Notes: generated from the letters alone by a model not told the origin. Shown: positions 19,174 through 49,568, numbered from the stretch's first letter. The stretch: DNA of 64,000 nt from Candidatus Sulfotelmatobacter sp. (GCA_049584475.1 JBAUXX010000004.1:5218-69217), one strand, 5' to 3'. Translations and numbers: made by a program.

Positions 19174-19229
19174 GAAAAGAATGGCGGGGACGACGGGACT
19201 CGAACCCGCGGCCTCTGCCGTGACAGGGC
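19174..19229. repeat. Left copy of a perfect 56-bp direct repeat (tRNA-Asp 3' 48 nt plus 8 nt of 3' flank); att-like site
   Basis: gaaaagaatggcggggacgacgggactcgaacccgcggcctctgccgtgacagggc is identical at 19174-19229 and 49484-49539. The flanking bases on both sides differ. Same orientation as the intact tRNA. Confidence 0.9.
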
Positions 19230-19704
19230 CTCGGGCTCATGTAACTGATTGATATCAAACGGTGTCGGCGGACATCTCTTGATACCATAAAGTATCGTAT
19301 GTCACTTCTTATCGTCCCCTTAACGTCCCCAGATTTGATAGCGGGAGCGTGTTCCTCGTACCCCAAAACCAGTTTCACCGTAGCTTACAAGAGCCATTAG
19401 CAAGGCCGGTTTACCAACCGGATCAAGTGCGCGAGAGCCCGACCTAGAGGAAACGATTCAACTGTCCAGAGTTCTTGGCATCGACAGTTGAGATACATTT
19501 CTGTTTGCCGACCAACCGAGAACTGGTAGCGATATGCGCGTTTACGAGGACCTATTTTTGCACTCTCAGAGCAAGCCGCTCGTAATCAGTCAGTAAGGGG
19601 AAAGGTTGTTTCGTACAATCAGGGGCTCTAAAGAGCTTATCGGACCCATAATCCGAACAGCCTCGACTGGTCGCCCTCGTGATCAGTATGGGTGGGAGCC
19701 GGGT

Positions 19705-20892
19705 TCAGAAGAGTCTCGGCGCGAAATCCTTCAGATCACGGCGCCAAGTTTGCCACTCGTGGTCGGTGCCGGGTGATTCGTAGAAAACATGTTGTATCTG
19801 CGCTTCCTGAAATGACGTGTGCAGTCTCTGGAGTCCTGCGCGCATTCTCTGTGGCTCATTCGTTCCTACGCCAAGCCAGAGCAGGTGCACTTTCTTGGCG
19901 AATGCTGCGGGATCAGCGAACACTCCGTTGTAGTCGGTCTTGGGATCTAGTTTCCGATTTCCGAGCACGAGCATCCCGCCCGCTCCACTGAAACCGCCAA
20001 TGTAAGAAAAGAGATTAAGATGATCCAGCGTAATCTGGAAGGTCTGCATGCCACCCATCGAGAGGCCTGCCATCGCGCGGTGGTCGCGGTCAGGTAAGGT
20101 GCGGAGGTTGGAATCAATGAATGGGATCAGAGCCTGGGTTACATCGTCTTCGAACGCCGCTGCCATGTCCTGCATCGCCTTCAACATTTCGGGTGACCCA
20201 AACCCCTTTGCGAACAGATCGACAGGCGCCTCGCCGGCGCGGTGCGCATAGCCGTAGGCCATCACCACGATCATCGGCTTGCAACTCTGGGCCGCGATCA
20301 AATTGTCGAGGATGAAATTCGCGTTGCCCTGACGCACCCAGCCGGTCTCGTCTTCACCGGCGCCATGTTGCAGATAGAGGACTGGATAGCGTGTCTTGGT
20401 CTGCGCGTCGTAGTTCGGAGGCAGATAGACCAATGCGTGCCGCCACGTCCCCGTCACCTTCGAGTGGTACCAGACTTCGCGAACCGCGCCGTGCGGCACA
20501 TCTTGCACCGAATAATAGGTAGAGCCTGGCTCAGGAACTTCCACGCCACTCGCCGGCTTGCCTCCTCCGAAGAAGGCGTGAGTGTTGGGGTCACTGACCT
20601 CTGCTCCATCGATCATCAAGGTGTAATAGTGGAAACCGGGAACAAGGGGCGGAGTGGTAATGGTCCAGAATCCATCCTGCTGTTTCTCCATGTCCAGTTT
20701 CGGACCGCTCCAGAAGTTCAGTCGGACTTTCGCAGCATCTGGAGCTTTCACGCGAATCTGTACTCGGCCGGCGCTGTCAACCCGCGGATACTCTGCCGCC
20801 CAGACATTCGTCGTAGAGGGCTGAAAACTGCCGGATTCCTGTGCCCAACCAAAACTCAAAGATAAGAGGACCAGTATTGCGAATCGCCGCAT
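19705..20892 (-). CDS. Secreted esterase (CE1/enterochelin-esterase-like) with N-terminal Ig-like/CBM48-like domain
   Basis: Start trimmed to [18 protein letters not shown] (signal peptide; GGAGAAAAA precedes the ATG). [18 protein letters not shown]...[23 protein letters not shown] (E-set), [31 protein letters not shown], and nucleophile elbow GLSMGG. Confidence 0.8.
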
Positions 20893-20992
20893 GTTTTTCT
20901 CCTTCGTTGCTATCGAATGCGAACCATAGCGCCGGCTGCCCGATAGTCCTGCTGTGAGCTTCAGACTTGAATTCCGCTGAATCCAGTTAACG

Positions 20993-22567
20993 TCACAGCT
21001 CAACTGAAACGACGGTTATAGACTTGGGTTCCAATTTCAAAGTCAGCTTGCCTCCCTGAACCTTCGCTGAGATCGGCCTTGGCATGACTGTATTGGGTGC
21101 GTCGAAGGTGTTGACACTGTCCACCTTCGGCGCGGTCAGAGTTTCGCCGCTCGCTGCTTTTGCCGTAATGCCCGCCAGGCCTGCCTCGATTTCGACCGGT
21201 TCATTGGGATCGAGATTGGTAATCTCCAGCCATAACTTGCCGATCGCGTCTTTCGCGGCGATCGCGTCCACTCGGGGCACCGCCACGGCCCCATGTGTGT
21301 ACCAACCAGCATCAAAAGTCACCGGCACAAGTGTGGCGTTCTGGAACGGTACGTACATTTTGAAGACGTAATAGGTCGGAGTCAGGACCATCTTCTCTTT
21401 GTCCGTGATGATCATTGCCTGCAGCACATTGATCATCTGTGCGATATTAGCGCCACGTACTCGGTCGGCATGACGAGCGAAGATATTGAGGTTGAGAGCC
21501 GCGAGAATGGCGTCGCGCAGGCTGTTCTGCTGGACTAGGAACCCCGGATTGCTGCCCTGCAACGGCGAGTACCAGCCTCCCCATTCGTCAACCACGAGCG
21601 CAACCTTCTTGTCGGGGTCATACTTGTCCATGATCGCCGAGTGCTTGCTGATGAGACCTTCCATCTCCAAAGTGGATTTGAGAATTTCGCTGTACTCAGT
21701 TTCACCAAATCCCACCGACGCATAGGAAGGCGGCCAGTGCCCGACCGTGTAGTTGTGCATTGAAAGTCCGTTGATGTCCCAGCTCCACGTGTGTTGCTGA
21801 TAAGCCTTCATGACGGTTTCCGTCCAGTCGGTCCATCGCGGGCCATCGCCGCCCGGACCGACGGCGATCTTGAGCATCTGCTGCTTCTCTTGCTGCGCGG
21901 GATTGAAATTCCTTACGAAGCGGCTGTAGATCTTCATCTGGCTGACGTAGTAGTCAGCAGTCATGTTGCCTCCACAATCCCAGCTTTCATTACCGATGCC
22001 GACCAATGCGACTTTGTACGGAGCCGGATGCCCGTTCGCGGCACGTTCTTTTGCCAGTGTCGTCGGTGCTGCTGCGGTCATGTATTCCAGCCACTCGGCC
22101 GCTTCCCGTGGAGTCCCGGAACCGACATTGACGGAGACATACGCGTCCGCCCCGATCTGATCGATGAAGTCCATGAACTCATGCGTTCCAAACGTGTTTG
22201 CCTCTGTCACTCCGCCCCAGTTGGGGTTGAGAGTTACTGAGCGTTGAGGGCCGATGCCCTTACGCCAGTGATACTCGTCGGCGAAGCAGCCGCCGGGCCA
22301 GCGAACGTTTGGAACTTTGATCGCTTTCAGAGCGCCCACAACATCGTTGCGTATCCCCCGAGTATTCGGAATCTTGGAATCGGGGCCGACCCAAATACCT
22401 TCGTAAATGCCGTGTCCGAGATGCTCTGCGAACTGCCCGAAAATGTTACGGTCGATCTTCGCGCCAGTTTTCGACGTGTCGATCGACAACTCCACTTTCT
22501 GGGCTTCCACCATCGGCGCAGCGATCGCCAGAACGATCTGCGTGAAGACGACAAGAAGTGAACGCAT
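20993..22567 (-). CDS. Alpha-L-arabinofuranosidase, GH51
   Basis: [35 protein letters not shown] and [11 protein letters not shown] (acid/base NE) are typical GH51 motifs. Start trimmed to MRSLLVVF (signal peptide). Confidence 0.85.
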
Positions 22568-48172: not shown

Positions 48173-49384
48173 TTGTTTAGACGGACACGTTACCAACACG
48201 GAAGCGTCGAACGAGAAGAGCGGAAGAAGGGACCAGCAGTCTGGGTCTACCGATGGTGGGAAGAAGACATCAACGGGAAACTGGTGCATCGCAAAGCACA
48301 GGTTGGGGATGTCAGGAAATACCCGACCGAATCTGCGGCACACTCAGCTGCAGACGCTCTTCGGCTAACCGTCAACAATCGCTGCGAACACAGGAACCTG
48401 CGGCGAACCACAATCAACACGCTCTGGGAGCACTACTCTCAAGAGGAACTGCCTCTCAAGGCACTATCCACACAGGATGCGTACATAATTTACGCAAAGA
48501 ACTGGATTGTCCCACGTTGGGGCAATCTGCCACTAGAACAAGTCAAAACTGTCGAGGTAGAGCGCTGGCTACGGGCGACCGGAGTGGCGGATGGGACCAA
48601 AGCCAAAATCAAGTGCGTCATGTCGGCTTTGTTTTCGCATGCCGTTCGGTGGGAGTTCTGTGGCTACAATCCCATTTCTTCAGGGATACCGGTGGGAACC
48701 GGGGGCAAAAGAGGCCCGAGCACCGGCGTCCGGATCAGCGCCAAACGTCAGAGATCCCCTTTGGTTTTGTCATCAGAACAAGTCAAGCTCGGTTTGGCAG
48801 AACTGGAGTTTCGGGATCAGTTGCTCGTGTTTCTAGAGGGAGCCTTGGGCATACGTCAAGGCGAACTCGGAGCGCTACGATGGCTGTCGTGCGATTTCGA
48901 CAACATGAGCATCAGCGTCCAACGCTCGTACTACTGGCGTCGAGGTGGAAACCTGAAGAGCACAAAAACGGAAGCGTCTGCAAAACTGCTGCCGATGCAT
49001 CCAAGCCTGAAGCACTCCTTGCAGGAGTGGAGATCGCAAAGTCTCTACAACAGACCGGAAGACTTCGTATTCCCTTCCGAAAGACTGCAAGGCAGCAAGC
49101 CGTTGGATCTAGCTTCGGTCCTGAAGAAGAAAATTCAGCCTGCATTCAGACGGATCGGAATCACGGGTGTGGGCTGGCACACGTTTCGACATTCGGTTGG
49201 AACCATGCTGGCGGAGATGGGCGAACATCAACTCACAATCCGCGACTACTTGCGGCACAGCAACCTTCACGTCACGAACAAGTACCTGCAGGCGACATCG
49301 AAGACCAAACGTTTGGCACAGGACAAATTGGTCGACGCTATTTTGCCGACGGGTATTTTGCCGAAGACAAACCTAATCCAATGA
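48173..49384 (+). CDS. Tyrosine-type site-specific integrase
   Basis: 403 aa. TTG start with AAGGAG 6 nt upstream. Catalytic residues in GALGIRQGELGAL (Arg), HTFRHSVGT (HxxR) and LRHSNLHVTNKYL (His, Tyr). Ends 107 nt from the tRNA-Asp 3' end. Confidence 0.9.
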   Translation: MFRRTRYQHGSVEREERKKGPAVWVYRWWEEDINGKLVHRKAQVGDVRKYPTESAAHSAADALRLTVNNRCEHRNLRRTTINTLWEHYSQEELPLKALSTQDAYIIYAKNWIVPRWGNLPLEQVKTVEVERWLRATGVADGTKAKIKCVMSALFSHAVRWEFCGYNPISSGIPVGTGGKRGPSTGVRISAKRQRSPLVLSSEQVKLGLAELEFRDQLLVFLEGALGIRQGELGALRWLSCDFDNMSISVQRSYYWRRGGNLKSTKTEASAKLLPMHPSLKHSLQEWRSQSLYNRPEDFVFPSERLQGSKPLDLASVLKKKIQPAFRRIGITGVGWHTFRHSVGTMLAEMGEHQLTIRDYLRHSNLHVTNKYLQATSKTKRLAQDKLVDAILPTGILPKTNLIQ

Positions 49385-49483
49385 GTGCTGTTTGGGAGTG
49401 TTCTCGAATGGGACCATTCTCGTTCGGCGCTTATCGTCCCCTGACATCCCCTGATTTGCCGGACGCTAGGGTTGCAAGTGCTT

Positions 49484-49539
49484 GAAAAGAATGGCGGGGA
49501 CGACGGGACTCGAACCCGCGGCCTCTGCCGTGACAGGGC
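49484..49539. repeat. Right copy of the 56-bp direct repeat (inside and just 3' of the intact tRNA-Asp)
   Basis: Identical to 19174-19229. Confidence 0.9.
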
Positions 49540-49568
49540 AGCGTTCTAACCAACTGAACTACGTCCCC
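49492..49568 (-). tRNA. tRNA-Asp (anticodon GUC), CCA encoded
   Basis: Reverse complement GGGGACGTAGTTCAGTTGGTTAGAACGCTGCCCTGTCACGGCAGAGGCCGCGGGTTCGAGTCCCGTCGTCCCCGCCA. It folds by hand into a cloverleaf: acceptor GGGGACG/CGTCCCC, D stem GTTC/GAAC, anticodon stem CTGCC/GGCAG with loop CTGTCAC, T loop TTCGAGT. 77 nt. Confidence 0.9.

Follow-up and report, generated by a model that had tools for sequence, protein, structure and literature searches.

We analyzed a 64,000-nt stretch of DNA from Candidatus Sulfotelmatobacter sp. (GCA_049584475.1 JBAUXX010000004.1:5218-69217; hereafter "the window", with positions counted from its first nucleotide), in which a segment of about 30 kb is bracketed by a perfect direct repeat derived from a tRNA-Asp gene and carries a tyrosine integrase gene at one end. 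The two copies of the repeat, at 19174-19229 and 49484-49539, are identical throughout (56/56), with a mismatch immediately beyond either end, so that the identity cannot be extended at all. The window contains a single tRNA gene, an intact tRNA-Asp(GTC) gene with encoded CCA on the minus strand at 49492-49568 (ARAGORN; Rfam, 74.3 bits). The right copy of the repeat is part of this live gene; the left copy reproduces the 3' 48 nt of the tRNA together with 8 nt downstream, and identity ends 3 nt past the anticodon loop. A preliminary description of the locus had reported this repeat, its derivation from tRNA-Asp(GUC) and the position of the intact tRNA beside an integrase gene and an excisionase-like gene, and our analyses with ARAGORN, Rfam, Pfam, PHROG and TIGR01764 bear it out on each of these points.

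A pair of this length has a chance expectation of ~4e-25 in 64 kb (our own arithmetic), and the proper null for the repeat is therefore "tRNA-derived" rather than chance. When the 56-mer was scanned against JGI metagenomes, at least 120 contigs matched, nearly all with intact tRNA-Asp genes. Among the listed contigs, conservation of the 8 nt that follow the tRNA is widespread, so that the repeat on its own is weak proof of an element, and the flanks decide. Logan contigs of SRR28060698 are 100% identical to the window and are broken within the repeat, as would be expected for any repeat exceeding the assembler k-mer. On the other side of the gene, the ~220 nt upstream (5') of tRNA-Asp (49569-49788) are 75-93% conserved in many unrelated metagenome contigs that differ further out; Rfam gives zero matches in this interval, and likewise at the fossil tRNA described below, and the interval may be a tRNA promoter or leader or another small feature.

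Adjoining the right copy of the repeat is a module of ~3 kb (46555-49483) with the order GNAT-like gene, small open reading frame (ORF), excisionase, integrase and P arm, the last being the integrase-side arm of the attachment (att) site. The integrase gene (48173-49384, plus strand; Pfam Phage_integrase; PHROG integrase, 5.5e-42) is full length, encodes 403 aa with candidate catalytic residues R228, H336, R339, H362 and Y371 (read off an alignment to PDB 3nkh), and ends 100 nt from the right repeat. Upstream of it lies a gene for an excisionase-like recombination directionality factor (47825-48073, plus strand; HTH_17, TIGR01764 "excise", PHROG excisionase), the product of which shows 87-93% aa identity among other members of the integrase family. 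The GNAT-like gene (46590-47339, minus strand) has no match in Pfam, PHROG or NCBIfam; its product has 515 matching 90%-identity clusters in public metagenomes, some named GNAT by JGI, shows 78-86% aa identity in five related contigs (L020, L047, L053, L076 and L124), and contains a motif, FRGRGIG, that would fit an acetyl-CoA-binding site.

The sequences next to the two repeats have the organization of integrase attachment-site arms. The P arm (49385-49483, plus strand) carries an arm repeat at 49429-49457. The P' arm, at the far end of the segment (19230-19339, plus strand), directly follows the left repeat and contains an invariant 33-mer (19239-19271), an 18-mer (19257-19274) and an arm repeat (19307-19336). 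The arm repeat, of ~29 nt (CTTATCGTCCCCT..AC.TCCCC.GATTTG), occurs in direct orientation in both arms, and an inverted copy of the P'-arm 18-mer, AAACGGTGTCGGCGGACA, occurs on the minus strand at 48139-48156, 17 nt upstream of the integrase start codon, and at the equivalent place in nine other family members. The arm repeats and 18-mers are candidate arm-type or regulatory binding sites. The deduced attP layout is P arm (49385-49483), 56-bp core and P' arm (19230-19339).

Comparison with other soil contigs establishes that both ends of the segment recur in other elements. An integrase with 96-98% aa identity is present in eight JGI soil contigs, in every one beside tRNA-Asp; past the tRNA, the eight have different chromosomal sequences, with at least 7 distinct contexts. 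Among the matches listed, the window-type P arm (30 nt left of the tRNA) is found in 36 of the 113 tRNA-Asp contigs with enough sequence. The module together with the core (46555-49539) is present at 88-92% nt identity in nine contigs (L020, L047, L053, L063, L076, L091, L124, L130 and L140), where similarity stops at these limits, and a further element, L143, shares 44525-49569, including the module, at 96% nt identity. Wherever the DNA left of the module is visible, each contig has a different cargo: in L020, genes for a second integrase and a PIN-like protein, together with a VirB3-like ORF seen in no other relative; in L047, a gene for a multicopper oxidase; TetR, SnoaL, aldo-keto reductase and PAS/sigma-54 regulator genes in L140; a short-chain dehydrogenase/reductase (SDR) gene disrupted by an insertion sequence in L143; NirK-like, NnrS and hemerythrin genes in L150-153; and a tannase-family enzyme and an alpha/beta-hydrolase in L162-164.

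The P' arm, for its part, is 85-90% identical to the post-core sequence in two contigs, L031 and L127, in which P arm, core and P' arm follow one another as in an attP or a tandem junction. It is present also in L152, where only the last 10 nt of the core remain between the P arm and the P' arm, and a decayed version is found in L116, in which a degenerate core and P' lie 1.1 kb from the tRNA, as would the far end of a decayed element. Read together, these sequences indicate that the conserved parts of the family are the ~3-kb module and the ~110-bp P' arm at the far end, with variable cargo between. The results support the conclusion that the two repeats behave as attL (19174-19229) and attR (49484-49539) of an element that has entered tRNA-Asp at the anticodon-loop position; the crossover would lie within the 7-nt anticodon loop, as deduced from the point at which identity ends.

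The same observations bear on the proposal that the left repeat is no att site but is left over from another tRNA-Asp gene or from a segmental duplication; the first of these, an ancient second gene, was raised in the preliminary description as an outcome that would speak against an element. The tRNA origin of the repeat and the tRNA-Asp fragments elsewhere in the segment would be expected under that proposal, whereas three features are not: the match breaks off at the anticodon arm, which is what an integrase of this class would be expected to produce; the repeat includes 8 nt past the CCA end; and the next 110 bp are the P' arm of the family, which in other contigs is joined to the P arm. 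We regard a second-tRNA origin of the left repeat as highly improbable.

Although the repeats behave as att sites, the left one does not adjoin pristine chromosomal DNA. About 140 nt to the left of attL is a 39-aa C-terminal relic of an older tyrosine integrase (18917-19033, plus strand; tblastx/tblastn, 56% identity to the integrase of L042, E=2.6e-9), in which the position of the catalytic Tyr reads His. The relic belongs to a different integrase lineage, one that also lies beside tRNA-Asp in L042, L051, L083 and L102, and synteny with the nearest relatives on this side ends at 18652. The relic and the end of synteny identify the left repeat as the middle att of an old tandem. The preliminary description had taken the segment to be an element integrated at the tRNA and the left repeat to be the displaced chromosomal 3' half of the tRNA gene; the first part stands, with att repeats, an intact integrase and excisionase and both arms recurring in other elements, and the second is contradicted by the relic and the synteny limit.

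A second set of relics lies at the boundary between cargo and module. Local alignment to the tRNA region identifies a fossil tRNA-Asp fragment at 46402-46466, consisting of a degenerate core and ~10 nt beyond, and ~107 nt past it an exact 21-mer (46574-46594), equal to tRNA-Asp positions 49530-49550, marks the left edge of the module and is conserved in L047, L053 and L076. The 21-mer comprises the anticodon loop and 11 nt of the tRNA 5' side; since these 5'-side bases are not derivable from precise site-specific recombination, a chromosomal tRNA-Asp must once have been engulfed. The fossil is common to L047, L143 and L151, all of which have different DNA on its left, and it is therefore old and inherited with the module. 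The spacer between the two fragments (46467-46573) aligns to the P' and P arms with scores no better than those of shuffled sequence, and resembles neither. A search for additional integrase remnants within the segment found none. On the sequence evidence, the segment appears to be a composite island, and the tRNA-Asp site a serially used hotspot. In accord with such use, other integrase lineages, with 68%, 36-42% and 25-31% identity to the window integrase, are present at the same tRNA-Asp in further contigs, and truncated integrases stand alone in many tRNA-Asp contigs.

These relics are also what would be expected if only the 3-kb module had been mobile, and if the 27 kb on its left were resident or older-island DNA that never travelled and was enclosed by serial integrations, deletions or rearrangement. 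The fossil fragments coincide with the cargo/module boundary, an older integrase has left a relic to the left of attL, the main cargo genes are chromosomal elsewhere (see below), and the composition of the segment is like that of its flanks. However, the P' arm, which would otherwise be expected next to the module, is separated from it by the whole 27 kb and abuts a perfect core; the fossil is degenerate, whereas the outer repeats are perfect; and the fossil is shared by elements with different DNA on its left. We consider it distinctly unlikely that the module moved alone.

The cargo amounts to 27 kb, of which 17.7 kb form a block of carbohydrate-active enzyme (CAZyme) genes. One string of six genes on the minus strand (19705-30380) is headed by a LacI gene (29304-30380), followed by genes for a glycoside hydrolase family 31 (GH31) alpha-xylosidase-like enzyme (26844-29210), a GH3 beta-xylosidase-like enzyme (24163-26796), a tannase/feruloyl esterase (22602-24140), a GH51 enzyme (20993-22627) and a CE1-type esterase (19705-21003). 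A divergent string on the plus strand (30445-37420) comprises genes for a Zn-dependent dehydrogenase (Zn-ADH; 30445-31542), a GH29 fucosidase (31638-33281), a second LacI (33370-34536) and a GH9-like enzyme with a CelD_N domain (34733-37420). All seven glycoside hydrolase and esterase genes encode signal-peptide-like N-termini, as judged by eye. The remaining cargo (37833-46236; Pfam) consists of genes for an ankyrin-repeat protein, an amidohydrolase, an AraC/Cupin_6 regulator, two SDRs, an SDR fragment and a TetR regulator, and its right part (44525-46236) is common to L143 at 96% nt identity. The CAZyme, regulator and oxidoreductase genes named in the preliminary description are thus all present, by Pfam and NCBIfam.

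An operator-like 15-mer, CGCTAACTGTAMCGA, occurs on the plus strand at 29237-29251, with further copies at 30492-30506 (2 mismatches) and 33350-33364. These are the only three matches to the motif in the window, all are in promoter regions of the two strings, and 0 of 100 shuffles reached three; the three copies support common control of both strings by LacI-type regulators. Pfam identifies no transporter gene in the island, and there is accordingly no SusC/SusD pair. The operator-like copies do link the promoters of the two strings, and the regulon, which had been called complete, lacks a transporter.

No island ORF has a Pfam or PHROG match to a relaxase, a coupling protein or type IV secretion, and none matches a phage capsid, terminase, portal or tail protein, in agreement with the earlier remark that phage and conjugation genes are absent. 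The island accordingly lacks the hallmarks of an integrative conjugative element and of a prophage, as well as the relaxase of an integrative mobilizable element. The sole PHROG matches in the island are to the integrase, the excisionase and, for the ankyrin-repeat protein, two families of unknown function. Transfer genes being absent, cell-to-cell movement would need a helper element, transduction or transformation.

The CAZyme block is not peculiar to the island. The esterase matches more than 100 database clusters at 83-94% identity. The six-gene string is colinear with L156, L158 and L160 at 73-86% nt identity, and the divergent string with L156 at 85-88%. On L156, a 632-kb scaffold, the colinear intervals correspond to 19699-22613, 24164-26811, 30485-33253 and 34726-37394 (85-88% nt identity); tannase, GH31 and the first LacI are missing, and similarity begins exactly at the esterase stop codon, with ordinary genes beyond. 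Neither an integrase nor an att arm is seen in the ~10 kb of L156 beyond the esterase, a view limited to that side, since the GH9 end runs past the L156 sequence retrieved. (A tmRNA gene lies 3.3 kb past the esterase end of this cluster, at L156:14459-14827, and is followed by a PIN-domain gene pair.) In L158-161 the block is another variant, with GH36 and GH42 added, and no integrase is called within 10 kb on either side of it. Colinear blocks at ~85% nt identity without a visible integrase or att site indicate that the CAZyme block is a common Acidobacteriaceae locus, situated in this genome between P' and the module. It is absent from all other sampled members of the family. Single homologues of GH51 (82% aa identity), GH3 (78%) and GH29 (70%) lie a few kb 5' of tRNA-Asp, on the chromosomal side, in L018, L080 and L048, respectively. 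We considered these as possible synteny with the island and rejected them, because each contig has one homologue and extended synteny is absent; they are probably coincidence, because these genomes are rich in CAZymes.

The age of the island is constrained by L138, an ENA contig from a conspecific strain that is colinear with 8122-28510, attL included, and shares at least 9.3 kb of the island. Because L138 has the same left junction, the island predates the divergence of the two conspecific strains. Divergence between them is 1.39% in the flank and 4.76% in the island part, with 1-kb patches of 8-12%, and the 56-bp core and P' arm are identical. The CAZyme genes of the island appear since to have recombined with diverged alleles.

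A further contig pair bears on movement. L151 and L152, from the same sample, share 12.9 kb of module and cargo at 99.3% identity without gaps; L151 is integrated beside tRNA-Val and tRNA-Asp, and L152 carries the P-core-P' junction. Near-identity in differing layouts shows that one family member, cargo included, occurs in two configurations. This pair bears on the suggestion that the 30 kb is mobile today as a single unit and carries the CAZyme regulon from one soil bacterium to another by site-specific excision and reintegration. Consistent with that suggestion, the island retains an intact integrase, excisionase and pair of att sites, more than 10 kb of cargo moves with a related element, and a near-identical integrase is found in at least 7 chromosomal contexts. 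However, the CAZyme block is present in contigs that have neither integrase nor att on the visible sides and is absent from the other sampled members of the family, L138 has the same left junction with an island part more diverged than the flank, and Pfam and PHROG find no transfer genes. We think this suggestion doubtful. Spread of the CAZyme regulon by site-specific recombination, which the preliminary description had put forward, is not established, and present mobility of the island is unproven.

Several points weigh against reading the segment as an integrated composite island. First, an empty-site allele, that is, tRNA-Asp joined directly to the left flank, was not found in 15 GTDB relatives or in the left-flank relatives L145-147. 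The right-flank search used a 781-aa protein in GTDB genomes and yielded 16 loci, 15 of them with conserved right-flank synteny; none of the 16 has tRNA-Asp or the left flank within 10 kb, and synteny in the 15 extends only to 50094. The nearest relatives through the left-flank epimerase, L145-147 (~89% nt identity), have no tRNA-Asp, and their synteny ends at 18652; L148 and L149, from the same epimerase search, have a different context. Since neither flank abuts tRNA-Asp in the relatives searched, the position is a synteny break. Second, GC content is 55.7% in the island and 56.4% and 56.6% in the flanks, and the tetranucleotide distance is just slightly higher, so that the composition check proposed earlier gives only a weak shift; compositional contrast is common in genomic islands and is not obligatory. 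Third, an excision product of this particular element was not seen. Fourth, the fossil fragments are not fitted by a simple tandem model, the spacer between them being unlike either att arm. Finally, the account includes a capture route for the CAZyme block that we infer. The preliminary description had named the same DNA in the same place in relatives, no empty site and no compositional contrast as a combination that would refute an element; part of that combination is observed, in the left junction of L138 and the match in GC and tetranucleotide composition. The case for an integrated element is supported by the family comparisons, and not by an empty site.

Weighing these points, we conclude with good though incomplete confidence that the segment 19174-49539 of this uncultured Acidobacteriaceae genome is a composite genomic island, integrated by a member of a widespread integrase family specific for tRNA-Asp. 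The island uses the standard integrase/excisionase mechanism, is not self-transferring, and has drawn its CAZyme cargo from the chromosomal gene pool. According to this reading, the integrase would bring about a crossover, in the anticodon loop, between the tRNA-Asp gene and attP (P arm, 56-bp core, P' arm), the tRNA gene would be restored by the element-borne copy of its 3' half, the previous 3' half would be left at the far junction, and the excisionase would reverse the integration. The 17.7-kb cluster, predicted to encode secreted hemicellulose-debranching enzymes, would have entered the element by capture or accretion and would not be ancestral element DNA; such an origin is the most likely one because the cluster is common on Acidobacteriaceae chromosomes. 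We infer this mechanism from the known working of such integrases; the crossover position, the roles of the arm motifs and of the excisionase, the capture route and present-day mobility likewise belong to the part of the account that goes beyond what the sequences show.

Additional junctions at tRNA-Asp illustrate the range of arrangements in other contigs. In L031 (476-680, in window orientation), the P arm is followed by an undamaged core and 112 nt of P', after which come the 5' 25 nt of tRNA-Asp and a common chromosomal flank, so that the tRNA-Asp is split by a P' "scar", with the integrase on the opposite side. In L152 (7700-7860), the P-P' junction has a core minus ~46 nt; resolution at a core-deleted junction of this type could no longer be possible, so that two adjoining elements could be permanently fused. 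In L051, L083 and L102, which carry the other integrase lineage, the stop-to-stop integrase frame continues into the att core and tRNA. In L060 (1930-2964), two inverted copies of the tRNA-Asp region lie ~1 kb apart with small indels, and may be a palindromic assembly artefact.

A broader hypothesis is that the integrase/excisionase/GNAT-like module is an abundant, Acidobacteriaceae-wide "cargo shuttle" that acquires gene clusters by integrating in tandem at tRNA-Asp and then losing the internal att site, after which the fused unit moves as one; on this hypothesis, the core-deleted junction of L152 and the fossil in the island would be traces of tandem integration followed by att loss. We offer this hypothesis tentatively, as a possibility that falls short of an even chance.

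Right-flank proteins are 64-97% identical to those of metagenome-assembled genomes labelled Acidobacteriaceae or "Candidatus Sulfotelmatobacter", and the protein that is identical to the left-flank epimerase bears the latter genus name at NCBI. Two right-flank genes, 50094-52439 and 52046-54238, have longest ORFs that overlap by ~390 nt; the orthologues in L002 suggest that the downstream gene would really start ~115 codons later. On the left, 6508-15970 holds an NRPS-like (nonribosomal peptide synthetase-like) gene, to which the L138 gene call gives condensation, AMP-binding and PP-binding domains, along with a gene for a free PP-binding protein and two GT2 glycosyltransferase genes. Together they form a small biosynthetic cluster, which is also present in L145 (89% nt identity). 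Anti-sigma, ECF (extracytoplasmic function) sigma and CPBP-protease genes (15997-18086) form a 2.1-kb insertion relative to L145-147, where the epimerase gene abuts the GT2 gene; the CPBP-family protein (17192-17914) has no exact database match.

In organization, the island resembles several known systems. It shares with islands that target tRNA genes by a tyrosine integrase, such as the Yersinia high-pathogenicity island or P4-type islands, an integrase beside a regenerated tRNA, a repeat from the 3' part of the tRNA, variable adaptive cargo and an excisionase-type directionality factor. It differs from them in its uncultured acidobacterial host, its GNAT-like third conserved gene, its lack of a compositional signature and an integrase lineage for which we found no description in the literature; nor did our literature search find a description of an acidobacterial tRNA-Asp island family. 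Williams, in 2002, is said to have classified tRNA integration sites, including an anticodon-loop sublocation class. The island resembles this class in having an identity block that runs from the anticodon arm to the 3' end plus a few bases, the crossover here being deduced from the end of identity. With CIME and with ICESt1/ICESt3 of Streptococcus thermophilus, where att-flanked islands undergo accretion and cis-mobilization through an integrative element next to them, the family shares tandem P-core-P' junctions (L031, L127), a core-deleted junction (L152), internal att fossils and a large integrase-less block beside a small integrase module; unlike those elements, it has no conjugation module, and accretion is deduced from relics. 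As in gut Bacteroides polysaccharide utilization loci on integrative conjugative elements, for example the porphyran locus, a carbohydrate-degrading cluster lies inside a site-specific element; in contrast to those loci, the island has no SusC/SusD, transporter or transfer genes, and its cluster is also an ordinary chromosomal locus in relatives.

In thawing permafrost soils, mobile elements are reported to be frequent in Acidobacteriota, with affected genes including those of carbohydrate metabolism (PMC13323075). That work, in the portions available to us, is a statistical survey by recombinase type, and the tRNA-Asp family and its att sites are not described in those portions.

Acidobacteria are among the most abundant soil bacteria and are hard to culture, and their gene exchange is poorly known. 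The locus provides a handle on that exchange: one integrase family, with a defined attP and attB, at about one third of sampled tRNA-Asp loci. The cargo of the family is ecologically relevant, comprising genes for hemicellulose debranching, tannase-type esterases, multicopper oxidases and NirK/NnrS-type proteins, and horizontal transfer of carbon- and nitrogen-cycle traits in soil could become directly testable. The integrase could, moreover, serve as a site-specific integration tool for a group without genetic systems. If the cargo-shuttle hypothesis were true, tRNA-Asp would be a main exchange point for carbon-cycle (CAZymes, tannases) and nitrogen-cycle (NirK-like, NnrS) traits in soil Acidobacteria.

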